Position numbers and translations under genes: made by a program. A stretch of DNA of 64,000 nucleotides, from positions 96,001 through 160,000 of the forward strand of contig CAWJQC010000004.1 in NCBI GenBank assembly GCA_963844965.1, given 5' to 3'. Below, piece by piece: positions 3,140-64,000 of this stretch (position 1 is the first letter of the stretch; each line of letters begins with the position of its first letter). The notes beneath the pieces are model-generated. The model saw only the letters and a list, made by a program, of their open reading frames with translations. It made no database searches and was not told the DNA's origin. The stretch is from an uncultured bacterium. GTDB taxonomy: Bacteria; Patescibacteriota; Minisyncoccia; UBA6257; 2-01-FULL-56-20.

Positions 3140-4625
3140 CGTAGCCGCCGGAGTTGGTGGCTAATCCATAAACTCCTACGCCGTTACCTGCCGCTGACTG
3201 TCCGGCAACCCCTACCCAGTAAGAAGCGCCGACCTGTCCGCCGAGAATCCCATTCGTTGTGGCGTTGCTATTATTTCCCGTTACCGAGCCGACCCATGAT
3301 GAATTGACGGCGCTCGTGAAACTGCCTACGCCAGCAACAACCAACGGATATGCCGGCGTCGTCGTCCCGATGCCGACGTTGCCGTTCGTGATGGAGAAAT
3401 ATGGACCACCCCCCATCCCAGTGCCAAGCGCCAAATTGAGGCCATAAGATTGTGACGTCAAATCAGCGTATGTAAATGCTCCGTTGCTGGTGGTGAACTT
3501 TATCCAATCTACGTTTGACCCGTTTGTATTGTCTAGCCGTAAGGTAGACGTACTTCCACTCTGAATATCAAGTTTTGCGACCGGCGCCGTGTTCCCGATG
3601 CCGACGTTGCCGTTGTTATTTATAAACAAGGCGGGTGACGCGCCGGATGAGTCAGAACCCTGAGTCAAAAAGGCCATTGGAGAACCGTTACTGCCGATCC
3701 GGGCCCAGTTCGCAACTGCTGCCGGTCCAAGCTGTAGCAAGGCATCGGTACCGTTAGATGTCAAGTCAAACTTGGCGAATTTTGACCCGTTCACGACATG
3801 CAACGTCGTTGCCGGCGACGCCGTCCCGATGCCGACGTTGCCGCCATATGCAAGCGTCATTATTTGGGAGTACCAACTGCTGGGGTTCTGATACCCAATC
3901 GTCAAGACCGAATTATCTGACGCTGGTGCAAAAACATACCCATTATTACTGCCAGCCATATCGCGGAGCTTGAAGGCTCCAAAGACATCAAGTGTATTTT
4001 GTGGTGACGGCGTCCCGATGCCGACCGAGCCCGAGAAATACCCGCCGCCGTAGACGGAGAGGGCCTGCGGCAAGTTGCTGGCGGAGGATGTGGTAACGCC
4101 CAGAGCGGAAGAAACAAACACACTGTGGGGGAACCCGTAGGGAACGCCGGAATCGGCCTCTAGAGAATTGAACACCGCGGGCGTGACATAGCCGGCGTTG
4201 ACGGTCCCGTTAAAATTGCCGTGGATCGTGCCGTTCACGTCAAGCTGGTAGCCAGGCGACGCCGTCCCGATGCCGACAGAACCGTCATTGCGCACGACAA
4301 GTATGGGCGACGAATTCGGATAAAGGATCTTCAATGTGTAATTCGCGGCATCAGCGGACGAAGAAGCAACGATGAGGAGTTTGGTTTCCGGCAGAGGCGT
4401 GGGCGTACCAACGCCCAGATTCCCAGCCGCATTAGTGCTTACCGCTCCCGAACCGAAACCGGGGGTGGGAGGAGGAGAGGCAAACGCGTAGTAGGTAGTA
4501 GGTAGTAGGTAGTAGGTAGTAGCGAGAATGACGAAAAACAAAACGTGCGGCGCAAAACTCGGACGCACACCGTAAAACTTGCGGCGGAGCTTTTGCTGTT
4601 TTTGGAACAAATCTGCGTCCATCAT
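2973..4625 (-). CDS. tail-fibre-like surface protein 1 (N-terminal part; paralog of 8555-11680)
   Basis: N-terminus about 95% identical to gene 8555-11680. KQQKLRRKF plus hydrophobic anchor, TTYYLLPTTYY, repeated NGNVGIGT(A/T)SP motifs. Block 3346-3850 is near-identical to 9464-9960. Confidence 0.6.
   Translation of the reverse strand: MMDADLFQKQQKLRRKFYGVRPSFAPHVLFFVILATTYYLLPTTYYAFASPPPTPGFGSGAVSTNAAGNLGVGTPTPLPETKLLIVASSSADAANYTLKILYPNSSPILVVRNDGSVGIGTASPGYQLDVNGTIHGNFNGTVNAGYVTPAVFNSLEADSGVPYGFPHSVFVSSALGVTTSSASNLPQALSVYGGGYFSGSVGIGTPSPQNTLDVFGAFKLRDMAGSNNGYVFAPASDNSVLTIGYQNPSSWYSQIMTLAYGGNVGIGTASPATTLHVVNGSKFAKFDLTSNGTDALLQLGPAAVANWARIGSNGSPMAFLTQGSDSSGASPALFINNNGNVGIGNTAPVAKLDIQSGSTSTLRLDNTNGSNVDWIKFTTSNGAFTYADLTSQSYGLNLALGTGMGGGPYFSITNGNVGIGTTTPAYPLVVAGVGSFTSAVNSSWVGSVTGNNSNATTNGILGGQVGASYWVGVAGQSAAGNGVGVYGLATNSGGYGGYFTNSGGGYALYVNGYRKRHSILHLRGELHHGLAERRRHLGIWRNRSRGGGIW
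4488..4521. repeat. (GGTAGTA)n heptamer array inside the signal-peptide region of surface protein 1
   Basis: gtaggtagtaggtagtaggtagtaggtagtag encodes TTYYLLPTTYY. Confidence 0.8.
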
Positions 4626-4859: not shown

Positions 4860-5567
4860 CTAGTGGCCGACGATGGGTGGAAGACCGGCCTGGTAGCGGC
4901 GGTAATTCCCCATGTACCGGTCCGCCACCTGAATATTCCGCACGCCGTACCAAACGTGAACCGTGCTAAGGTAACCGGCAAAGCCGATGCTTGCGAGACG
5001 CTCGGCCCTCACCATTCTCCTGCCCCACTTATGTCCCCCCCATTTATGCTCTGTCCAGCGAGGGATAGCCGAAGAAAAGTAGGAAAAAACGACATCGAAC
5101 GCCGAGGCGCTCCCTAACACCCCAGCAATATTGCGATTGCCAAATTGGGTATATAGGGAGTCCGTCTCACGGGGGCCCTGCTGGCTAGCATAACGCAAAC
5201 CGTTGCTAGCGACGTACTCTGGAATAAAGGGTGGCGTAGAGAGGGAACGGAACGTGGTTATGTTGTCAAACGCAAATGGCCCGCGCTCAACACCCCACAT
5301 CCAAGCCTGTGTCCTCTCAAGCTTGCTCTGGTCCCGGTTTAACTTGCCGCCAGGCCAAGCCATAACCCTAAACACCTTATCAAAGGTTGATGGCTCAACC
5401 GGTGCCGCCGAACGCAAGGGCGAGATAGCGGGTGCGAGTGCCGGTGCAGACGCGGCGGATGCCGCCACGGGCGTTGACGCTAAGGGCAGTTCGGTAAGAC
5501 CGTCTGCCGGAAACGCGCGAACCGAAATGATTGTCAAGATTGTCAACAAAAGCACCAGTCGCTTCAT
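4860..5567 (-). CDS. secreted hypothetical protein
   Basis: Signal peptide MKRLVLLLTILTIISVRA followed by an Ala/Pro-rich linker; no recognisable domain. Confidence 0.4.
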   Translation of the reverse strand: MKRLVLLLTILTIISVRAFPADGLTELPLASTPVAASAASAPALAPAISPLRSAAPVEPSTFDKVFRVMAWPGGKLNRDQSKLERTQAWMWGVERGPFAFDNITTFRSLSTPPFIPEYVASNGLRYASQQGPRETDSLYTQFGNRNIAGVLGSASAFDVVFSYFSSAIPRWTEHKWGGHKWGRRMVRAERLASIGFAGYLSTVHVWYGVRNIQVADRYMGNYRRYQAGLPPIVGH

Positions 5568-5791
5568 AACGACCTCCTCAAAAAGATTTAATTTAATTGC
5601 GCAAAGCAATTTGGCTACTCCCAAGAATAACCAAATCGCTTTGCGCAAGCAATATATTCATTTTTCAAGATACTTGCCTATCTATGCTAATTATAGCACA
5701 AATAAACAACCTGTCAACCCCCACCTTTTTCCGAAAAGGTGGGGGTCAAGTGGCCGCGGCGGCTGACCCGCTGAAGCGACGATACCCTACA

Positions 5792-6046
5792 ACTCATAAA
5801 TCTCATCTCGCTTGCCTATTTTGAGTATATAAATTGCGCCATTTCTAACGTCAAATACCAACCTATAATCGCCCACGCGAAATCTGAACTCCCCGCCGCG
5901 GTTGTCAGCCAAACGCTTGGCAAACCTCAACGGATTATCCTCTGACGCATAAATGCGCATCTTCTTTGCTTTGCGATGCGCACTTGAACTTCTCTCGGCA
6001 GGGATTCCAACTGCTTAGCCGCCCGCTTGGCATAGAAAATCTTCGT
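5792..6046 (-). pseudogene. RelE/ParE-family toxin, decayed copy (start ATG->ACG plus 5-nt insertion)
   Basis: Aligned to intact copy 7812-8066: cttcgttaca vs cttcattaca, and ttctttgctttgcgatg vs ttcttcgcgatg. Confidence 0.6.
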
Positions 6047-6222
6047 TACAATCCCAACTTCTTAAACAGCTTATCCTGCGATATAGTTTTTTTTGCCTTG
6101 ATTTCTTTTCTCGCTTCGCGGACATCCAAAATATGCGCGAGGTAGCCAAGCAGGGCGCCGAAGCGAGCATCCGTTTTCCTCAAACGCTCGTATTCTTGTT
6201 TTGGTATAGTAACCGTGGTCAT
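6046..6222 (-). CDS. type II antitoxin (58 aa, MTTVTIPKQEYERLRKTDARF...), copy A
   Basis: Identical to 8066-8242; lies immediately upstream of the RelE-like toxin with a 1-nt TAATG overlap. Confidence 0.55.
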   Translation of the reverse strand: MTTVTIPKQEYERLRKTDARFGALLGYLAHILDVREARKEIKAKKTISQDKLFKKLGL

Positions 6223-6345
6223 ATAAGTGCATTATAGTAAACCGGCGGCGGATATCAACCCCCACACCAAACGAGGACTTTCCGGGTCCCGCGCCGAAGG
6301 CGCATGTCCTCGTTAGGATTCTCGATAGGAATTGCCGGTGCGACA

Positions 6346-6564
6346 TTACAACAGAGAAACAAACTGCTCCGGTGCAAGTTCGGCATCACGTAGTATTTTG
6401 CGAAGCAGAGAAACATCCACTGCCTTATAGTTCGGCACCGTTACGGATTTCTTGCCGGGACAGGACAAACGAATATGGCTGCCGCGCTGGCGAACTTCGC
6501 GATAACCGAACTTTGCCAAAGCAGAAATAATCTTGCGGCCGGAGATAACAGGCAGTTTAGACAT
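6346..6564 (-). CDS. hicA: HicA-family toxin (mRNA interferase)
   Basis: 72 aa, RGSHIRL motif, paired with upstream HicB. Confidence 0.7.
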   Translation of the reverse strand: MSKLPVISGRKIISALAKFGYREVRQRGSHIRLSCPGKKSVTVPNYKAVDVSLLRKILRDAELAPEQFVSLL

Positions 6565-28084: not shown

Positions 28085-29686
28085 CTAAAATTTTCGGGCT
28101 GTAGTATAGCGGCAGTACGCACCCTTGGGGTGGGTGTAGACCGGGTTCGACTCCCGGCAGCCCGACATAACGGAACTTGCATCAACTTTTTCAAAATCAA
28201 CGCGCTCGCTTCGCTCGCTGTCTTTATGCACGAGGGGCAAATGGAGAAGCAAATCCGTAACTACTTTCCATTCGTCTTTCCAATCCCAAAAAATTTCCCT
28301 GTCCCGCAGGCGGCGGTTCGTTCCGATTTTCCCCGCAAAGGATTTTATGGCGTCGAATTCTTCGGACGAAGCCAGTTTTGCCGCGTGAAACGCGGATATA
28401 ATCCATTCCCGCAATGGTTCGATCCAATAGTTTCCCCTCCGCCCGCAATCATCATTCTGCTTGGACAAGGAAACTTTAGTTTTGATAAGCTCGTCCTTTT
28501 TGGCAAGATAGATTTCTTTTTCAATTGAGCCGTCCAAAAAGGCGTTCACGAGCTTGTCTAATTTCTGCTCGGTTTCCTTGAGTTGGGTTTCGAGATTGCG
28601 GGCGGAATTCTCCGAAGATTGGATGCCTTCTTTTTCCCACGCTTCCACTTGAACCAGCATTTTCTCTTTCCAATCTTCGGGGATGGCGACCTCCGAGATT
28701 TTCTCTTTGAGCTGTTGCACGAGTAAATCTTCGCGCAGATAGCTTTGTGAACACGGGCCAAGCCGTTTCGTACAGCGATAATACTTGTAGAGGCCGCCGT
28801 TCCCTTTCGCGTATTGGGCGGTGATGGCCGCGCCGCACTCGCCGCAGGTGAGCAATCCGGTGAACGGGAAATAATGACGCTTCTTGGAGTGGCGCGGCTT
28901 GGCTTTGTTCCTCAAAACCTCCTGCACTTTCTTGAAGGTCGCCTCGGGAACTATCGGCAGGAAATTGCCGACATAGCTCTCGCCGTTGTGTTTTATCACT
29001 CCGAGATAGGCGGAGTTCGTGAGCATCCGTTGGAGCGTGGCCTTCGGCATGGGATTTCCCGTACCGCTCACGATGCCGAAAAACTGGAAGCGGGCGGCGA
29101 GCGTCTTTAGGGTGTGCCTCCCTTCGGCGTATTCCTCAAAAACTTTTCTGATGATTCTCGCCCGCACGGGGTCGGGTTCGATGTTCCGCGTCTTGGGATT
29201 GTTGAGGTAACCGAAGGGGGCTTTGGTCGGCCACTCGCCGCGCCGCAATTTCTGCCGGATGCCGCGCTTCACGTTCTCGGAAAGGTTATCGCTGTAATAC
29301 TTGGACTGGCCGAAGGCGACCTGCAACATGAAAAGTCCCTGCGGGGTCGGCTCAAACCAGAACGTCGGGAACTTCAGCGAGGCAATCTTCTGGGTATCGA
29401 TGAGGTAGATGATTTGGCCGCCGTCTATGGAGTTGCGAGCCAATCGGTCGGGATGCCACGCCAATATGCCGACGGGTTCTTTGCTCTCGTGAATTTTCTT
29501 GATAAGGTCGCCGAACACTTCCCTGCCCGGACTTTTCGCGCTCTTGCTCTCGATGAAGGTCTCGATAATCTTTATATGTTCCCGTTTAGCGAACTCGGCA
29601 AGCTCCGCGAGTTGGGCTTCAATGCTCATCACCTGCCGTTCCTCGTCCTCGGTGGACTTGCGGGCATAGAGGAAATATGGGGTCAT
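28085..29686 (-). CDS. large serine recombinase (integrase/invertase type); 3' end reads through the tRNA-Pro 3' end
   Basis: N-terminal YARKSTEDEERQVMSIEAQ resolvase catalytic domain, recombinase domain, zinc ribbon CGECG...YYRC, coiled coil. Last ~27 codons are the reverse complement of tRNA-Pro. Alternative C-terminus ...SQLLNAVRTYFIENPRD is preserved at 30050-30260. Confidence 0.8.
   Translation of the reverse strand: MTPYFLYARKSTEDEERQVMSIEAQLAELAEFAKREHIKIIETFIESKSAKSPGREVFGDLIKKIHESKEPVGILAWHPDRLARNSIDGGQIIYLIDTQKIASLKFPTFWFEPTPQGLFMLQVAFGQSKYYSDNLSENVKRGIRQKLRRGEWPTKAPFGYLNNPKTRNIEPDPVRARIIRKVFEEYAEGRHTLKTLAARFQFFGIVSGTGNPMPKATLQRMLTNSAYLGVIKHNGESYVGNFLPIVPEATFKKVQEVLRNKAKPRHSKKRHYFPFTGLLTCGECGAAITAQYAKGNGGLYKYYRCTKRLGPCSQSYLREDLLVQQLKEKISEVAIPEDWKEKMLVQVEAWEKEGIQSSENSARNLETQLKETEQKLDKLVNAFLDGSIEKEIYLAKKDELIKTKVSLSKQNDDCGRRGNYWIEPLREWIISAFHAAKLASSEEFDAIKSFAGKIGTNRRLRDREIFWDWKDEWKVVTDLLLHLPLVHKDSERSERVDFEKVDASSVMSGCRESNPVYTHPKGAYCRYTTARKF
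28095..28165 (+). tRNA. tRNA-Pro (anticodon GGG)
   Basis: Acceptor CGGGCUG/CAGCCCG, anticodon loop uuGGGgu, T-loop GGGTTCGACTCCC. Confidence 0.7.
28163..28321. repeat. IR-A left arm (recombinase 3' coding end), inverted copy at 30050-30208
   Basis: ~159 bp identical in inverted orientation; inner boundary at the tRNA-Pro 3' end. Confidence 0.85.
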
Positions 29687-29759: not shown

Positions 29760-29963
29760 ATGGATATAGCGGCTAAATTCGGACAGAAGATAAAGAGGTT
29801 GCGATTGAGCGGAAAGATGTCTCAAGGTGGCCTCGCCAAGAAGCTCGGCGTTGGTGCTTCCTATGTCAGCAAGATAGAGCGTGGCATACAAAACGTATCT
29901 CTTAAGGGCGTGGAGAAATTAGCCGATGCGTTGGGCGTACCACCCGACCGCCTCTTGAAATAA
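29760..29963 (+). CDS. XRE-family helix-turn-helix transcriptional regulator
   Basis: KRLRLSGKMSQGGLAKKLGVGASYVSKIERG; divergent from recombinase. Confidence 0.75.
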   Translation: MDIAAKFGQKIKRLRLSGKMSQGGLAKKLGVGASYVSKIERGIQNVSLKGVEKLADALGVPPDRLLK

Positions 29964-36708: not shown

Positions 36709-37055
36709 TTATTTATCAACGAAGATCAAATTCTTCAACCTTTTTTGATTCAGAAAATTTTTGGGCAGCATGTGGCGCACCGTTTCCCTGAGCGTTTTCT
36801 CCGGATCTTTGGTAAAAACCTGCTCAAAAGTCTTTTCTTTCAGGGTGCCCCATGTAGCCGGTATGGCGATAATAGATCTTCTCTTTGAACTTTTTTCCGG
36901 TAACAACGAGGATCCTTGCAATTTTTCACGTATACTTTGTCACCACCGACGAGCCGCCGCTCGTATTTCGGGCTTTTCTTACCCTGTAAAATCAAAGCTA
37001 TCTCCGAGGCCAGTCGCCCCAATATCTTGTTTTTGGCATCTATGTGATAATCCAC
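36709..37055 (-). CDS. rplM: 50S ribosomal protein L13 (two apparent +1 frameshifts within ~75 bp near 36840-36930; GTG start)
   Basis: IDAKNKILGRLASEIA... then VTGKKFKEKIYYRHTGYMG (third frame) then ...VRHMLPKN. Confidence 0.7.
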
Positions 37056-37058
37056 AGA

Positions 37059-37127
<69 letters not shown>

Positions 37128-37132
37128 CTTTA

Positions 37133-37486
37133 TTATACGAATTCCACGGCTGCCAGCCGCGAACCGTCCCTTTTTCTGGACTTTTGAAGTTTGATGATCC
37201 TGAGATATCCGCCGGCGCGCGCAGCGTAACGCGGACCCAGTTCTTCATAAATTTTATTGGCGATCCTCGGATTGTGCACGCGTTTCAAGATAAGGCGGCG
37301 TGCCGCCAAATTCTGTTTTTTCGCGATGGTGACGAGGCGCTCCACAACCGGCCTGATGGCCTTAGCTCTCGCCTCGGTAGTTTCAATTCGTCCCACCTTT
37401 ACCAAATCGTTCGCGAGATTGCGTAAAAAAGCACGCCTCTGTCCCCTTAACCTGTGAAATTTTTTCCCTTCTTTTAAATGTCTCAT
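37133..37486 (-). CDS. rplQ: 50S ribosomal protein L17
   Basis: Typical bL17 sequence. Confidence 0.85.
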   Translation of the reverse strand: MRHLKEGKKFHRLRGQRRAFLRNLANDLVKVGRIETTEARAKAIRPVVERLVTIAKKQNLAARRLILKRVHNPRIANKIYEELGPRYAARAGGYLRIIKLQKSRKRDGSRLAAVEFV

Positions 37487-37489
37487 AAA

Positions 37490-37560
37490 CTAGAATCTAG
37501 AAAGTAGAATCTAGAAAGTAGAAGTCTTAGATTCTATTTTCTATTTTCCATTTTCTAGTT
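37490..37560. repeat. TAGAAAG/TAGAATC heptamer array plus inverted partner, directly 5' of rplQ start
   Basis: ctagaatctagaaagtagaatctagaaagtagaag...attctattttctattttccattttctag. Confidence 0.75.
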
Positions 37561-37569
37561 ACGGCGCTA

Positions 37570-39487: not shown

Positions 39488-39871
39488 TTACTTCAATTCA
39501 ACTTTCCTCTTACCGCTGCCGGCGGTTCTCCGAACGTTTCCGCGGACGGTCCGCGAATTCGTGCGCGTCCGCTGTCCTCTTGAGGGCAGCCGCCGCAAGT
39601 GGCGCGAACCGCGATACGTCTTCAAGTCTTTTAACCTTTGGATATTTCTTTTTATAAGCTGGCGGAGTTCGCCTTCTATCGCGAAATTTTTTTCAACGAT
39701 ATTTTGGACGCGCGCAATCTCTTCGTTCGTGAGCGCGTTCGCCCTTTTATTCATGTCAACTTTGGCCGAACCCAAAATTTTCCGGCTCGCCGGCACGCCT
39801 ATGCCGTAAATATAAGTCAGCGCTATCTCAATTCTTTTATTATCTGGAATGTTAACGCCGAGAATGCGCAT
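39488..39871 (-). CDS. rpsM: 30S ribosomal protein S13
   Basis: MRILGVNIPDNKRIEIALTYIYGIG. Confidence 0.85.
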   Translation of the reverse strand: MRILGVNIPDNKRIEIALTYIYGIGVPASRKILGSAKVDMNKRANALTNEEIARVQNIVEKNFAIEGELRQLIKRNIQRLKDLKTYRGSRHLRRLPSRGQRTRTNSRTVRGNVRRTAGSGKRKVELK

Positions 39872-39872
39872 G

Positions 39873-39948
<76 letters not shown>

Positions 39949-39954
39949 CTTTAT

Positions 39955-40068
39955 TTATCCTTGTCTTTGTTTATGTTTGGGATTAACACAGACGATATAA
40001 AGCCGCCCCCTGCGCTTAACGACCTGGCAATTTTTGCAAATTTTTTTTATTGAACTTCTTACCTTCAT
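39955..40068 (-). CDS. rpmJ: 50S ribosomal protein L36 (37 aa; below ORF-track cutoff)
   Basis: Manual translation [37 protein letters not shown]; sits between infA and rpsM as expected. Confidence 0.75.
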
Positions 40069-54145: not shown

Positions 54146-57100
54146 TTACGGCAATTGCGGGATCTGAAGATTCAGAGAAGGGCACATGAGCATGTTGATC
54201 CACCACCTCGTTGTCTTGTAGACGTAACCTGTGGCGATGGTGTTGCTCTTAAGACCGTGCGGTACCCACGGCTCAAGCACCTTAATGTTGTACTTCAACT
54301 GAAATTGTATCACGGCGTTGTACGTCAAACTTCCATAATATCCGGTGACGGGAAGGTTAATCCCCAAATTCTGATTTAGGAATTCCTGAAGTTTTTTCAC
54401 TTCACTTGGATCGTTGTTCGCTCCAAGCTTGATGTAATCTCTGAGGTACATGCCGCAGCTCACTGAAGCGCCGAGTACTTGTCCGCCTGTTTGTCCGCCC
54501 AAAAGCTGAATTGAATCATCGGCAGTCCCGATATCAGTATTGGTTACGGAGCGGTACTTAACATACACGGTCTCCGTACCCTGTGTGGACCCGATAACCC
54601 ACGGCTTAGTGGTAACGTACGGCTCCCATGTGGCGCCGGCGAAATCCGGAGTGTTGGAGAGTTCCATCGTGTACGCGCCTGTTCCGTAAAGGGACAGCGT
54701 CACGCTCGTGGTCGCGGTTGAAGGAGCTCCACTATCAATGGAGATGCTATATGCCGATCCACCGCCGCCACCCAAAACCGTAGAGCCTCCTCCGCCACCT
54801 CCGCCACCGCCTCCACCACAATTTGACGTGCAGGGTGCGGCTTGAACCGCAATCGAAACTGAAGACGAATTATTGGCGGGGTCATCTACAAGTGAATCCA
54901 ATTCCTTGATCGTCGCGGTATTTGTGAGCGTTGTCCCCGCAGTCTGCGGGAGAACCGTCACTGAAATAACGAGTGTTGCCGTGGCGTTCGGTGAGATTGT
55001 TCCGACGCTCCATCCGATGGTAGCGCCCATACTGGAAGTACCCTGTGATGAAGTTATGGAGTTTACGCTCAAGCCGATCGGGAGGATATCGTTTACTACA
55101 ACGTATGTGGAAGTCACGGAACCGAGGTCGGTCGCGGTTAGGGTATATGTTATCGTATCGCCGCCTTTCGGATTTGCATTATCCACCGTCTTTGTGATCG
55201 CGACGTCCGCCGTGTTATTTGCTATTGCCGTTGGCGTGAAGGTCACAGAGCATGTCGTGCTCGCGGAAAGCGTCCCTGCGCAACCGCTGGAAGTCGCAAC
55301 CACGTAGTTGGAACTCGCCGCCGTAACGCCATAGAGGTCATTTGTAGGAAGAACGAACAATCCCGTGCCGTTACCGGTGGACGTTGACTGCGTTGCGGAA
55401 GCCGTTGAATCCAAAACCGTGATCGTCGCGGTATCGCTCGCGTTGAGGCCGCTCACGGAAACCGAGAGTGTGCTTGTCGTGTTTAGGGCAGGCGATCCTC
55501 CGGTCCCCACCAATACAGTTGCGTCTGACGAATTGTTCCCCAAATTAGGATCGGTGGTTGAAGAATTCTCACCGACCGAAGCTGTATTGGTTATCGTCCC
55601 CGTGGCGTTCACCACTGCCGCGATCGCCAATGTCGCCGTAGAGCTCACAGGCATGTCGCCTATCATCCAGCTTCCTGTTGAACTCACGTAGCTTCCTTCG
55701 GAATTGGAAGAAGTGGCATTCAGGAAAGTGAGACCGGAAGGCAGAGTGTCGGTAGCTACTACGCCGGTTGACGTAGAAGGGCCGAGCGCCGTCACGGTAA
55801 GCGTATAGTGAACGGTGCCGCCTTCAACGGTTGAAGTCACGTCGGCCACTTTAGCGATGGAGATGTCGGCGGAAGGAATGGTTGAGGTGGGAGTCGGAAC
55901 CGGCGCGCCGCATGAAGAACCGGCTTCGGTCACGGTGAGCTTGTAAAGCAAACCGGCCGGATTTGACTGAGCCGTAGAGCTCGCCAGACCAAAGTTCGTC
56001 ACCGTAAGCGCCAGATGATTCACACCCTGGTGCACCGCGGATAACGCGTCAACGTGCCCCTCGTTCTCGAGGAAATAGTTGAATTCACCAGAGTTGAGAG
56101 CCACGTCCGTCCCATTCAGCGCCGCATCGTACGAATTATCTGCCGCGATATCAAGATGGGCCGCGAGAGGACCGCCAGTCACCATAAAGTCCTTAGTGAA
56201 TGTGAATGTCTGGTTATGCGCCGGGTCAGTCACGTAAGGCGTCGCCCAAATCCACGTCGCGCCAGGAATTGAGGCGGTCCAACGCGAATCGTAGGGCGTC
56301 GCGACGAGCGCCGCCGAGCTGCCGTTTACCATGTTCGTCGCATCGCTCACGATGACATCCGAACAAGTAGCAGCCGGCGCAGGCGTCGCGGTTATAGACG
56401 ATGTCGCATTGTTGTTTGTCGTGTTCGGATCGGTGGTTGAAGAATTCTCACCGACCGAAGCTGTATTGGTTATCGTCCCCGTGGCGTTCACCACTGCCGC
56501 GATCGCCAATGTCGCCGTAGAGCTCACAGGCATGTCGCCTATCATCCAGCTTCCTGTTGAACTCACGTAGCTTCCTTCGGAATTGGAAGAAGTGGCATTC
56601 AGGAAAGTGAGACCGGAAGGCAGAGTGTCGGTAGCTACTACGCCGGTTGACGTAGAAGGGCCGAGCGCCGTCACGGTAAGCGTATAGTGAACGGTGCCGC
56701 CTTCAACGGTTGAAGTCACGTCGGCCACTTTAGCGATGGAGATGTCGGCGGAAGGAATGGTTGAGGTGGGAGTGGAGGTTGAAATCGCGCCGAGGAACCG
56801 ATTGAGAACGATAAGCTGCCGCGTGGGCCGCGATGCCTCAAGATAGATGTCTCCGTCGGCGTTCGTATTCCTTAGACCATCGTTCGTCGGATCGTTGTCA
56901 AACAATTGCCCGCTGTAGGAGAAAAAATCGGATGTCGCATTTGCGGTAACTGTGTCCTGGTCGTTGTAAAGCGGCATTGCCCAGTTGTAGCTCGAGCTCG
57001 CAATCCGCTCCTCGCCATAGTAATAATGGCCAAGCGCGAGATTGTTGTAAGTCACGCACTGGGCGTTCGCCGCGGACGCGCCGAAAAGCTCTGCGTTCGC

Positions 57101-57670
57101 GGAAAGTGGGGTCGTGAAAACCGCGGTAGGCAGTAATCCTGCCGCAGCGGCCGTTGTTGAGGGCACGGAAACGAAGCCGGGAACCGTAAAGGTCTGCCCC
57201 GGAAACGCCGTGCCGTCCACGACCGTGCCGCTCGCATTCACAATCGCCTTGCAGACGCTTATAGACCCCGTCGTTGGCGCGGGAGGAACGAAGGTATCGG
57301 TGATGACGCAGGTCTTCGCGTCTTTTCTTTCCATCGTTCCCGAACAGTCAGCGGAAAAACCAGCAGTGTAATCCGAACTTGAAGCCTGACTAACGTGGTA
57401 CGTTCCGGTTCCCATTGAGACCAAGGTTCCGGAAGCGGAACCCTGGAACGTTGACGGAGAAGGATTGTCGCCGGAAACCATCACTGTAAAATCGGAGGCG
57501 GATTTGGTGCCGCCACCGGTGTTCACGACGTTCACGACAACTGTAAGCTTGGCGCAAGAATCAGAATCCTCGCCGCAACTGCATGCATATGTTTTTGTCG
57601 CCGCGAGGATCGCCGACCAGAGAAGAATTCCAGTAATAATCAGACCTGTAATCGCAATCTTTCTTTTCAT
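54146..57670 (-). CDS. giant cell-surface protein with DUF11 repeats, poly-Gly tract and C-terminal peptidoglycan-binding domain
   Basis: Signal peptide; repeated ...ADISIAKVADVTSTVEGGTVHYTLTVTALGPSTSTGVVATDTLPSGLT... (DUF11); C-terminal ...LQEFLNQNLGINLPVTGYYGSLTYNAVIQFQ (PG_binding_1-like). Confidence 0.65.
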   Translation of the reverse strand: MKRKIAITGLIITGILLWSAILAATKTYACSCGEDSDSCAKLTVVVNVVNTGGGTKSASDFTVMVSGDNPSPSTFQGSASGTLVSMGTGTYHVSQASSSDYTAGFSADCSGTMERKDAKTCVITDTFVPPAPTTGSISVCKAIVNASGTVVDGTAFPGQTFTVPGFVSVPSTTAAAAGLLPTAVFTTPLSANAELFGASAANAQCVTYNNLALGHYYYGEERIASSSYNWAMPLYNDQDTVTANATSDFFSYSGQLFDNDPTNDGLRNTNADGDIYLEASRPTRQLIVLNRFLGAISTSTPTSTIPSADISIAKVADVTSTVEGGTVHYTLTVTALGPSTSTGVVATDTLPSGLTFLNATSSNSEGSYVSSTGSWMIGDMPVSSTATLAIAAVVNATGTITNTASVGENSSTTDPNTTNNNATSSITATPAPAATCSDVIVSDATNMVNGSSAALVATPYDSRWTASIPGATWIWATPYVTDPAHNQTFTFTKDFMVTGGPLAAHLDIAADNSYDAALNGTDVALNSGEFNYFLENEGHVDALSAVHQGVNHLALTVTNFGLASSTAQSNPAGLLYKLTVTEAGSSCGAPVPTPTSTIPSADISIAKVADVTSTVEGGTVHYTLTVTALGPSTSTGVVATDTLPSGLTFLNATSSNSEGSYVSSTGSWMIGDMPVSSTATLAIAAVVNATGTITNTASVGENSSTTDPNLGNNSSDATVLVGTGGSPALNTTSTLSVSVSGLNASDTATITVLDSTASATQSTSTGNGTGLFVLPTNDLYGVTAASSNYVVATSSGCAGTLSASTTCSVTFTPTAIANNTADVAITKTVDNANPKGGDTITYTLTATDLGSVTSTYVVVNDILPIGLSVNSITSSQGTSSMGATIGWSVGTISPNATATLVISVTVLPQTAGTTLTNTATIKELDSLVDDPANNSSSVSIAVQAAPCTSNCGGGGGGGGGGGSTVLGGGGGSAYSISIDSGAPSTATTSVTLSLYGTGAYTMELSNTPDFAGATWEPYVTTKPWVIGSTQGTETVYVKYRSVTNTDIGTADDSIQLLGGQTGGQVLGASVSCGMYLRDYIKLGANNDPSEVKKLQEFLNQNLGINLPVTGYYGSLTYNAVIQFQLKYNIKVLEPWVPHGLKSNTIATGYVYKTTRWWINMLMCPSLNLQIPQLP
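55548..55893. repeat. ~346-bp exact internal repeat (second copy 56427-56773) inside the DUF11 protein gene
   Basis: Identical DNA over the whole length, encoding a duplicated DUF11 module. Confidence 0.85.
56427..56773. repeat. second copy of 346-bp internal repeat
   Basis: See 55548-55893. Confidence 0.85.
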
Positions 57671-61473: not shown

Positions 61474-61890
61474 TCAATTATGGGCGGATTCGGAAAGATA
61501 ACCGCACAGCGTCTCGTGGATCTCGCCCGCCATCCTCCGTAAAAGTTCCCGGCGCTTCCAGAAAGAATTGTTCTCGGAGACCTCTTTGTTCCGGATCAGG
61601 CCGAGCTCGCGGATAGCCACATAACGATCGTGCCCAAGATCGTCCGTGGTGCGGATATCTATATCTTCAATCCCCTGATAGACCTGCTTCATAATGAAAT
61701 ATTTGGGAGAGAGCTCGGATGCCCGGCTACCCCTTTTCGCGCCTTTGAAAAAGACCGCAAACGACGGCGTGGATTCTATATATTGGACGAAATCGTGGAG
61801 TGAGACGAAAAAAGGAAAGCTCGCGGGAGTTTCACGGACAATTTTGAGTTTTTGATCAAGAACCAGCCTGACTTTTTCCGTTGTTGTCAT
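61474..61890 (-). CDS. hypothetical protein
   Basis: ORF only. Confidence 0.35.
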   Translation of the reverse strand: MTTTEKVRLVLDQKLKIVRETPASFPFFVSLHDFVQYIESTPSFAVFFKGAKRGSRASELSPKYFIMKQVYQGIEDIDIRTTDDLGHDRYVAIRELGLIRNKEVSENNSFWKRRELLRRMAGEIHETLCGYLSESAHN

Positions 61891-62191
61891 TTACCTTATT
61901 CTACCACGCCCGCGGTAAAATAGCCATATTCTGCGGGATGTCTTTGCCCGTTTCTTTGTTTTAACAAAGAAGTGCGGGCTTTGGAAAATTAACGCGGGGG
62001 GCGGGTTAGTGAATAACGATAGAACCTGTTTTGTGCAAAAAATCCAGCATTTTCAGGTGCCGAGTTGTTCATGATCAAGAAATGTTGAAGAAAAAATGTT
62101 CCAGCGGCCGGAGGATGTAGAACTTCCTGCCTTGGTTACTAGGCAGGAGAGAACCAGTTTATACCAGTTTATATAAGTAAACACACTTGTA

Positions 62192-62977
62192 TTAAAGCTG
62201 ATATTTTCGCTTAAACCTTTTTATCGCCTCTCTAGCGCCAGGCAAAGCTGTGGTGTTGTACAACTTACTTAGGTTGTCAAGAAAACTCGGACCAAATGAT
62301 TCCTCAAATAATTTAACAACGTCCTGGTTTTCAAGCGTCTCCCCGTTCAATAAAGCCTGCACCAATGCCTCCCAACACACGCGCTCGCTCTGCTGATTCT
62401 TAGTTGCCAACCTCTTTACCATGGCATTGACTAAAGAAACTTCTAGGTTATAGGAAAATCCTTGATCGCTTGCGACTGCCGTTTTGTATGCACTTACCCG
62501 ATCCTCGGGCCATCTTGATCGCTCTGCGTAAGCCACGGTGATTTCCCTGGAGAGCTTTTCCACTACGCCCTCGTTAAGCGCATCGAACAAGCAGCCGAAA
62601 TTACTGTTGCGGTATATGCTGCTGACTCGGCCCGACCTTCGGAAGTTGATGCCTTCTTCGCCCAACTTTCGAAACAGGCCGGATTGTTTATAGTCTACGT
62701 ATTCTTCGGTTCTTCGATCTGGGTGTTCGTAGGTATTCCACATACAGATATTTCGACTTACTGCATGCGTTTCCTCGTGTGCCAGCACAGCAAGCTGTAT
62801 TAACTCTGCCCCTCCGCATTTTTCAAGTTTCGCTTTTGCTGACTTCCGCCTTTTCGGATCCAAGTCAGAATAATCATCAACACGGCTAAGCACAATGACG
62901 TTGTTTTCCGGATTGTAGCTATGACCTGGACCCGCTATTTTAGACACAAAGGTCGAAACCAAGTACCATTGTGTCAT
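62192..62977 (-). CDS. HExxH zinc metallopeptidase-like protein (possibly ImmA/IrrE-like)
   Basis: LAVLAHEETHAV motif; start assumed at MTQWYL (listed ORF extends to 63100 across the opposite-strand recombinase). Confidence 0.4.
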   Translation of the reverse strand: MTQWYLVSTFVSKIAGPGHSYNPENNVIVLSRVDDYSDLDPKRRKSAKAKLEKCGGAELIQLAVLAHEETHAVSRNICMWNTYEHPDRRTEEYVDYKQSGLFRKLGEEGINFRRSGRVSSIYRNSNFGCLFDALNEGVVEKLSREITVAYAERSRWPEDRVSAYKTAVASDQGFSYNLEVSLVNAMVKRLATKNQQSERVCWEALVQALLNGETLENQDVVKLFEESFGPSFLDNLSKLYNTTALPGAREAIKRFKRKYQL

Positions 62978-64000
62978 GACTAACAAAAAGGGGCATCGTA
63001 TCCCCATGCTCCGCCGCATTGAGCGGGGCGAGGCGCAGGGTATCATCTGTTGGAAACTAGATCGAGTGGCACGCAATATGCAGGACGGCGGAAAGACCAT
63101 TGAACTCCTTAAACAAGGAGTGATCCAACATATTCGTGCCTTCGCAAGCAGTTACTATCCGCAAGACAACGTGCTCCTCATGTGCATAGAGTTCGGCATA
63201 GCTGACCAATATGTTCGCGATTTAAGTGCTAACACTTCGCGCGGATTGAGATACAAAGCAAGCTTGGGTATCTACCCCGGCCTCGCCCCGTTCGGATATA
63301 TAAACGATCCACAGACCAAGACCGTTATCGTAAACCGCAAGAACGCAAAGCTCGTCAAAAAAACTTTTGAGATTTACGCGACGGGCAAAGTCCGCCTTGA
63401 AAATCTTGCCGATCTTTGGGAGAAGGCGGGCGTCATGTCTAAAGGCAACCGTCGCGTCCATATTTCAAGAATGTCTTTCATTCTGCAAAATCCTTTCTAC
63501 TACGGACACTTTCGTTATTGCGGCGAGATACACGAAGGCAAGCATGAGCCAATCATTACGAAAGACCTCTACGATAAAGCGAACGCTGTCCTGCGAAGCC
63601 GAGGCCGTGTGCCGGACATTAAGAACGACCCAAGCCCTTACTGCGGCCTCCTGCGGTGCGGCGAGTGCGGTATGGGTATTACGGCCGAGGACAAGACAAA
63701 GCACCAAAAGAACGGCAACGTCCACCACTACGTTTATTACCGTTGTACCCGCAAATCGAAGACGCACAAGTGCCACGAAGCACCCGTGCGGAGCGAGATA
63801 CTGGATCGGCAGTTGTCGGCTCTTATCGCCGACTACGCCATGCCCAAAGAGTGGGTAGCCCCTTTGTCGGCTATGCTCGACCAAGAGGCCATAAACGCCA
63901 AACAGACGGCGTCGGTGGCCGTTCAAGAGTTGCGGGAGCAGGTGCAAGACCTTACCCGCGACCTCGCCAGACTTACCGATGTCTATGTTGCACAAGACAT
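62976..64000 (+). CDS. large serine recombinase, 5'-truncated (no catalytic Ser region) and running off the window end
   Basis: Manual translation ...LDRVARNMQDGGKTIELL...NDPQTKTVIVNRKNAKLVKK...CGLLRCGECGMGI...YYRCTRKSKTHKC..., homologous to 28085-29686; not in ORF track because there is no stop before window end. Confidence 0.6.
   Translation, partial: MTNKKGHRIPMLRRIERGEAQGIICWKLDRVARNMQDGGKTIELLKQGVIQHIRAFASSYYPQDNVLLMCIEFGIADQYVRDLSANTSRGLRYKASLGIYPGLAPFGYINDPQTKTVIVNRKNAKLVKKTFEIYATGKVRLENLADLWEKAGVMSKGNRRVHISRMSFILQNPFYYGHFRYCGEIHEGKHEPIITKDLYDKANAVLRSRGRVPDIKNDPSPYCGLLRCGECGMGITAEDKTKHQKNGNVHHYVYYRCTRKSKTHKCHEAPVRSEILDRQLSALIADYAMPKEWVAPLSAMLDQEAINAKQTASVAVQELREQVQDLTRDLARLTDVYVAQD

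Follow-up and report, generated by a model that had tools for sequence, protein, structure and literature searches.

Two genes on opposite strands appear to begin inside one another near the right-hand end of a 64,000-nt stretch of DNA from an uncultured bacterium of the Patescibacteriota (contig CAWJQC010000004.1, positions 96,001 to 160,000, of assembly GCA_963844965.1; this whole stretch is referred to below as the window). One is a large serine recombinase (LSR) gene on the plus strand and the other a gene for a metallopeptidase-like protein with an HExxH motif on the minus strand, and their ATG codons overlap within the palindrome TCATGA. How did two divergent genes come to be arranged in this way? 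An earlier note, made from the sequence alone, had described the recombinase as a homologue of a second one near 28 kb that lacks the catalytic-serine region and runs off the window end. It had suggested a recombination or insertion junction at the palindrome, and had proposed that the HExxH protein could be an ImmA/IrrE-type regulator of a mobile element continuing beyond the window. The truncated recombinase, the HExxH gene and the overlapping start codons were all borne out by our analysis, and comparison with relatives indicated that both divergent genes have lost their 5' ends at one junction. We consider it reasonably probable that a single deletion in and beyond an integrated element carrying a helix-turn-helix (HTH) gene and an LSR left a recombinase remnant at a tRNA gene and clipped the HExxH gene. 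The coordinates of all main features are collected in Table 1.

RESULTS

The recombinase gene lacks the beginning of its catalytic domain

The plus-strand open reading frame (ORF) extends without a stop from 62931, with its first ATG at position 62976, and continues off the window end; alignment to the full-length relative P0004 predicted a further ~126 codons and a stop near 64376. Its product belongs to an LSR family of ~516 amino acids with the source labels Patescibacteria, Paceibacterota or Parcubacteria, and an exact copy of the remnant was absent from a collection of 5.8 billion proteins. With the intact 533-amino-acid recombinase near 28 kb it shares 30% identity (E = 6e-52), and the alignment of the two, which had been proposed as a check, begins at residue 61 of the 28-kb protein. 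Missing are residues 1 to 60 of the family, including the catalytic-serine motif YARKST. The residual piece of the resolvase domain begins at a family-conserved Met (..NDMLRRIERGEAQGI..) and is followed by the Recombinase domain and a zinc ribbon, whose Cys pattern CGECG...C...C is kept in the alignment with relatives. The best similarities in NCBIfam were to CcrB and XisF (E ~5e-26, far below their cut-offs), and PHROG 95, "integrase," matched at an E value of 8.6e-55. Because the first ~60 residues with the serine nucleophile are missing, the protein as predicted cannot catalyze recombination.

Homology to close relatives sets in abruptly. In a protein alignment with 10 full-length relatives, it begins at MLRRIERGEAQGIICWK, which corresponds to Met11 of the window ORF and to residue ~61 of the relatives. 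At the DNA level, homology to loci L001 and L003 starts at 63005/63006 (CATGCTCCGCCGCATTGAGCGGGGCGAGGCGCAGGG), with near-identity from there on and no credible alignment of the window to either locus upstream of 63005. This onset marks a clear LSR-side breakpoint 30 nt downstream of TCATGA; thus, the first ATG does lie at 62976, where the earlier note had the gene start, but homology to close relatives begins only at Met11. A resemblance of NKKGHRIP to AKKPGRPVFND in 62982 to 63005 (KK.G.R.P) was considered as residual homology, but was too weak to call. All three plus frames upstream of 62976 contain many stops and no resolvase-like coding. With residues 1 to 70 of three close relatives of full length as queries, tblastn matched the window only in the 28-kb gene (29686 to 29489) and in ten residues from 63006. 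A simple frameshift hiding the catalytic domain, a possibility raised at the outset, was ruled out by these two results, and the truncation is real in the window sequence.

The HExxH gene is truncated at its 5' end as well

The HExxH gene is called from an ATG read from 62977 (CAT at 62975 to 62977) and stops at 62192. A word-indexed search with its protein, P0001, returned no more than a pair of remote homologues (303 and 307 amino acids); an exhaustive profile search recovered 782 cluster representatives at E ≤ 1e-3, mostly 300 to 340 amino acids long, of an uncharacterized family. The match of P0001 to the family profile starts only at position 80. In a 40-sequence alignment, all 39 other members carry a conserved N-terminal region of ~87 residues (consensus ..SREIF..SGEPE...PEL..L..IDF..L..IF..A..SGI.P..NFLG.ERI..), which P0001 lacks. 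When a hidden Markov model (HMM) built without P0001 was compared with the minus-strand translation, only nodes 88 to 299 of 311 matched, with the match starting at 62926 and its envelope reaching 62953. Nothing was found upstream in any minus frame up to 63400, and an HMM of the N-terminal region only had no match in six frames of the whole window. These comparisons indicate that the HExxH gene, like the recombinase gene, is 5'-truncated.

Residues H67, E68 and H71 are invariant in the 40 sequences and lie within a model helix (residues 57 to 73). The N135-E136-G137 motif is retained in P0001, with an invariant E136 flanked by conserved N135 and G137, where model helix 132 to 153 begins; in the model, this position of E136 is compatible with a downstream-helix Glu as the third ligand of zinc. 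The AlphaFold2 model from the 40-sequence alignment had a predicted local distance difference test score (pLDDT) of 86 and a predicted template modeling score (pTM) of 0.86 (an earlier model from 3 sequences, with a pLDDT of 49, was unusable). Residues 1 to 15 scored below 50, which fits the expectation for non-native sequence at the junction. The proposed HMM search of the protein gave no Pfam match at E ≤ 0.1, M78 included, and no NCBIfam match, and the other 39 family members yielded only isolated weak matches to three unrelated Pfam families (E values of 0.004 to 0.009). The best PDB matches of the family profile had E values of 0.13 to 0.18, and the two weak matches among the PHROGs were to families of unknown function (E values of 0.013 and 0.024). 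Foldseek of the model against the PDB and BFVD returned no match; in the model, the fold weakly resembles that of gluzincin peptidases. Downstream of the gene, a 138-amino-acid ORF (61474 to 61890, minus strand) had no Pfam, NCBIfam or PHROG match, and the 300-nt spacer between the two holds two tandem copies of ACCAGTTTAT at 62153 to 62172.

The breakpoint is bracketed by an interval that includes TCATGA

Between the start of the HExxH HMM match and the onset of recombinase homology lies an interval assignable to neither gene family (Table 1). TCATGA falls within it, and the two alignments bracket the breakpoint to that interval. The earlier note was right that the recombinase gene is sharply truncated, but its placement of the junction at 62975 to 62978 was too narrow. 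The palindrome itself is uninformative, since an ATG appears on either strand of any CATG. No terminal inverted repeats, target duplications or flanking repeats were found around the HExxH segment, and a transposon-like insertion carrying the HExxH gene was rejected because terminal inverted repeats and target duplications are missing. The att-like TGTCG cores suggested earlier did not occur within 100 nt of the junction, in this orientation or as CGACA, and no att sites were recognized for the recombinase. There was likewise no partial tRNA copy at the distal end, since no T-arm pattern is present in the window beyond two real tRNAs, and blastn-short with the relatives' tRNA-Thr regions gave no match in the window. 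The 28-mer at the junction was absent from JGI metagenomes. A scan for promoters and terminators around the junction remained at chance level (3 promoter-like sequences found versus 2.5 expected). A promoter-like TAGACA-17-TACCAT lies at 62941 to 62969, and AAGGGG precedes Met11 (63006) by 12 nt.

Intact relatives place the recombinase at the tRNA-proximal edge

In L001/L002, L003 and L007, a divergent XRE-HTH gene of 67 to 68 amino acids precedes the recombinase, and an unannotated 299-amino-acid ORF takes its place in L005/L006. No HTH gene was present at the window junction; tblastn with the family's HTH protein matched the window only at 29763 to 29960, beside the 28-kb recombinase. At its other end, the LSR overlaps antisense tRNA-Thr(ggt) in L003 (2218 to 2291), and in L012 the LSR 3' ends overlap antisense tRNA-Thr(cgt) and tRNA-Thr(ggt) (1746 to 1821 and 3675 to 3750). 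To our knowledge, tRNA genes are unusual targets for large serine recombinases. Loci L005 and L007 have their 5'-side host genes in common (Peptidase_S66, an ornithine/diaminopimelate decarboxylase, a methyltransferase and two DCD genes). Between these genes and the recombinase, L007 holds only the HTH gene and a 54-amino-acid ORF, and L005 a type ISP restriction-modification gene, DUF3644 and others. Since the two loci differ between the common flank and the recombinase, the element interior lies on the recombinase 5' side, and the recombinase forms the tRNA-proximal edge. By this architecture, a tRNA is expected just past 64000, and the element interior is expected where the truncated HExxH gene now abuts. 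An element continuing beyond the window, as had been supposed, is probably not to be expected.

Two further observations concern the tRNA end of these genes. In both the LSR family and its sister family, the C-terminal tails of the recombinases (G(I/F)EP..) correspond to the T-arm of the tRNA translated in antisense. In L001 (~3915 to 4180), the tRNA-Thr antisense at the recombinase 3' end is split at the anticodon loop by ~190 nt and was not called by ARAGORN; the interruption could represent an intron of the tRNA or an insertion related to att.

The recombinase remnant contains a putative mosaic tract

Residues 38 to 100 of the recombinase ORF are more diverged from relatives than the rest at all codon positions. 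Differences amount to 59% at third positions versus 21% elsewhere and to 23% versus 7% at first and second positions, and identity of the patch to all 120 family hits is only 52 to 61%. Relaxed selection on the leftover catalytic piece, which has many substitutions at otherwise invariant positions, was considered and rejected, since third positions are ~3-fold more diverged too and the third-position bias inside the patch is the same as elsewhere in the remnant; this pattern points to a mosaic tract and not to decay. Identity comparisons also rejected an origin of the patch in the 28-kb copy or in any of the 120 closest relatives, and by its sequence it looks like a gene-conversion or mosaic tract out of an unsampled lineage. 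The L001 and L003 recombinases are also mosaic relative to one another. For residues 101 to 341, comparison with L001 and L003 gave an omega of ~0.2, with differences biased to third positions. Both ORFs at the junction are open, and the peptidase motifs of the HExxH gene are intact.

Related recombinases are also truncated, and HExxH relatives often neighbor tRNA genes

A 466-amino-acid version of the LSR, P0031, occurs on four contigs. In L011 (739 to 2139) and L012 (2339 to 3739), family homology starts at ~codon 35 (..LEIANEFIEKRSAKMPGRP.., with stops before it), and the gene, ~470 nt away from tRNA-Thr(cgt), has its end within tRNA-Thr(ggt). P0031 is thus a 5'-truncated remnant between two neighboring host tRNA-Thr genes, with the rest of the element gone. 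L012 also carries an intact LSR in tandem, at the upstream tRNA-Thr(cgt). A recurrent site-specific breakpoint common to the truncated LSRs was rejected, because the breakpoint falls at ~codon 35 in L012 versus ~codon 60 in the window, a difference that favors random decay over a site-specific process. In a further version, P0123 (465 amino acids; L013, L014 and L015, in L013 at 5001 to 6398), HTH_38 replaces the resolvase catalytic domain. P0123 is 65% identical to the window LSR over the Recombinase and zinc-ribbon parts and was found on 5 contigs, including a TARA scaffold. It adjoins a mer-like cluster with an ArsR-type HTH gene, MerC and a pyridine-nucleotide disulfide oxidoreductase, and may be a domesticated recombinase.

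Relatives of the HExxH gene lie beside tRNA genes in two of the three other examinable loci, in the order RmuC-NYN-HExxH-tRNA-Arg-UvrD in L004 and RmuC-YqeY-tRNA-Glu-HExxH in L008; the upstream flank of the third, L009, is too short. A locus search with the sub-family alignment yielded one distant locus, L010 (Moraniibacteriota), which has no tRNA nearby. The closest HExxH homologue, P0129 (40% identical), stands in L008/L009 tail to tail with an LSR remnant of the window-LSR family. A small insert (1021 to 1460 in L009, also present in L008) interrupts this LSR at residue 394; GGGACAGCCACCATT repeats, two of them direct and one inverted, border the insert, which codes for an N-terminal fragment resembling IS200/RAYT. 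These neighborhoods lead us to regard the HExxH gene as part of the host chromosome, with a tendency to occur close to hot spots of integration at tRNAs.

Other features of the window

Apart from this locus, the window contains intergenic arrays of GTAGAAA-type heptamers at 37030 to 37134, 37461 to 37568 and 39845 to 39955, each followed by a TTCTA-rich stretch, which flank genes at ~37.5 to 39.9 kb. An exact 300-nt direct repeat (55545 to 55844 and 56424 to 56723, 879 nt apart) lies in a 1,174-amino-acid ORF at 54146 to 57670 on the minus strand.

Table 1. Positions of the features discussed, in window coordinates
Feature	Position	Strand	Description
5'-truncated HExxH (gluzincin-like) gene	62192..62977	-	261 amino acids + stop; identical to P0001; carries HEETH
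Junction interval, assignable to neither gene family	62927..63005		HExxH HMM start 62926 (envelope 62953); recombinase DNA homology from 63005
TCATGA with both called starts	62974..62979		Plus-strand ATG 62976-62978; minus-strand ATG 62977 to 62975
5'-truncated LSR ORF	62976..64000	+	341 codons in window; 81%/79% identical to full-length P0004/P0005
Residual C-terminal part of resolvase catalytic domain	63006..63263	+	ORF residues 11-96; Pfam Resolvase positions 55-141/145
Putative mosaic patch of remnant LSR	63087..63275	+	ORF residues 38-100; ~3-fold more diverged from relatives than the rest, all codon positions
Recombinase domain PF07508	63339..63602	+	ORF residues 122-209; E 1.6e-12, 48 bits vs cut-off 21.1
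Zinc beta-ribbon PF13408 (Zn_ribbon_recom)	63642..63818	+	ORF residues 223-281; E 2.5e-9, 37.8 bits vs cut-off 25.3
Comparator: intact LSR of sister family	28085..29686	-	3' end covers tRNA-Pro(ggg) 28095-28166 (+); divergent XRE-HTH ~29763-29960 (+)

DISCUSSION

The deletion that we favor builds on what was observed: each of the two genes is truncated, the pieces that they lack are not in the window, and intact relatives have the architecture described above. An HTH-LSR element, of a type common in Patescibacteria, would have inserted itself at a tRNA gene, at the 3' end. This gene, probably tRNA-Thr(GGU), is predicted on the minus strand ~0.3 to 0.4 kb past the end of the window. The recombinase would have stood at the tRNA-proximal edge, reading antisense into the tRNA, with the divergent XRE-HTH gene and the cargo on its 5' side and a chromosomal HExxH gene at the far side of the element. 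One deletion would then have taken recombinase codons 1 to ~60 together with the HTH gene, the whole cargo and the att site at the distal end, as well as about the first 87 HExxH codons. The outcome would be two 5'-truncated ORFs head to head without an intergenic region, and the shared CATG would simply be the first in-frame ATG usable by each remnant. Both remnants would have lost their function. They are probably young pseudogenes: pseudogenes because the native promoters are lost, and young because both ORFs are still open. The L011/L012 remnant would be an independent analogue of such a scar.

Several points weigh against this account. The remainder of the recombinase and the tRNA predicted at its 3' end would lie beyond the window, unseen; an undeleted allele was not found, and the single deletion as the cause is something that we infer. 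Both remnants are intact ORFs, and the peptidase-like domain has all conserved catalytic residues. Undecayed ORFs and an omega of ~0.2 would fit a recent event, but they would also fit retained function or an assembly artifact. The mosaic patch suggests that the history of the locus holds at least one further recombination event, and the HExxH gene could have been cargo of the element and not a host gene.

A reciprocal rearrangement (inversion or translocation) or a larger insertion might instead have split both genes and left their 5' parts elsewhere in the genome, outside the window. Sharp breakpoints on both sides and undecayed remnants would suit such an event, the LSR family recombines often (mosaic patches, tandem copies in L012, the insertion in L009), and the search for the missing 5' parts covered only the 64-kb window of a 216-kb contig. 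However, neither part is present in the window in any frame, the segment is unmarked by inverted or direct repeats, and the analogous L011/L012 remnant is clearly a deletion between two host tRNAs; we regard a rearrangement as unlikely. We think it quite unlikely that the metagenome assembler joined unrelated places and that the head-to-head junction exists in no cell. The junction has no repeat common to both sides that could mislead a de Bruijn assembler, and comparable truncated LSR remnants occur on four independent contigs of relatives, although the source is indeed a metagenome-assembled contig, the two truncated ORFs are fully open at a sharp junction, the recombinase is itself mosaic, and the junction 28-mer was missing from the metagenomes searched.

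The truncated products could also be functional. A dead recombinase translated from ATG 62976 or from Met11 might bind att or tRNA-site DNA and, for example, block related elements, and the shortened HExxH peptidase might work with the recombinase or alone. The intact ORFs and peptidase motifs, the omega value over residues 101 to 341, AAGGGG before Met11, the promoter-like sequence and the other N-terminally altered family versions (P0031, P0107 and P0123) are consistent with this idea. We nevertheless judge it very unlikely, in view of a promoter-like count at chance, an omega whose value, taken against distant intact relatives, stems mostly from the period that preceded truncation, breakpoints that differ as random decay predicts, the loss of native upstream signals from both genes and the absence of an exact copy of the remnant among 5.8 billion proteins. 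Still more doubtful is the wider proposal that dead truncated or domain-swapped LSRs (the window gene, P0031, P0107 and P0123) are retained in Patescibacteria as sequence-specific DNA-binding proteins, which would sit on the tRNA att site and keep out or regulate incoming elements of their own family; if true, the window remnant would be a young case of recombinase domestication and not junk. The proposal of the earlier note, in which the HExxH protein would act as an ImmA/IrrE-type regulatory protease of a mobile element extending past the window end, seems to us extremely improbable. The HExxH motif does adjoin a recombinase gene, and HExxH relatives stand beside an LSR in L008/L009 too. However, the M78 profile (PF06114) matched neither the HExxH protein of the window (E ≤ 0.1) nor any of 40 family members (E ≤ 0.01), and no cognate XRE/ImmR-type HTH gene lies beside the HExxH gene, whose neighbors are the truncated LSR and the 138-amino-acid ORF. 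Moreover, the modeled fold is not IrrE-like, with fold matches to other zincins, and the relatives are found in a chromosomal context.

If a deletion is the cause, the locus is a clean, well-bracketed example of integrated-element decay in small Patescibacteria genomes. As genome decay it is of an ordinary kind; it concerns two uncharacterized families and is of little importance in itself. It does carry a warning that "genes" with overlapping divergent starts can be gene-caller artifacts on a deletion scar. By-products of the analysis are a widespread Patescibacteria LSR family whose 3' ends fall within tRNA genes of the opposite strand and which has a small XRE-HTH gene as its partner; an uncharacterized gluzincin-like family now provided with a confident structural model; and evidence for frequent recombination and truncation among LSR elements.

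Among known systems, the HExxH family may be compared with the gluzincins (clan MA(E): M1 aminopeptidase N/LTA4 hydrolase, M61 and thermolysin-like peptidases), although by sequence it matches no Pfam, NCBIfam or PDB family. Unlike gluzincins, it is a small stand-alone protein of ~320 amino acids with its own conserved N-terminal region, and the spacing from HExxH to NEG is ~65 residues, versus 18 in M1. With ImmA/IrrE (Peptidase_M78) it has the HExxH motif and the proximity to a recombinase in common, but it differs in M78 match, HTH partner, context and fold. The recombinase has the same domain order after the catalytic domain, PF07508 and then PF13408, as phiC31 Int, Bxb1 Int, CcrA/B and XisF; unlike these LSRs, it is without the first ~60 residues and the serine nucleophile, and its Patescibacteria-wide parent family ends within antisense tRNA genes. 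In Prochlorococcus tycheposons and cryptic elements, an LSR is present instead of a tyrosine recombinase in 27 of 937 (bioRxiv 10.1101/2020.12.28.424599). As in tRNA-integrated islands, the recombinase stands next to a tRNA in L003, L011, L012 and the 28-kb copy; the 3' end of the window gene lies past the window. Degraded integrase and prophage remnants at tRNA genes likewise consist of a recombinase pseudogene left after internal deletion, as in L011/L012. Unlike these usual tRNA-side scars, the deletion proposed here would also have cut the neighboring gene and thereby produced two head-to-head ORFs that share CATG, with the tRNA outside the window.

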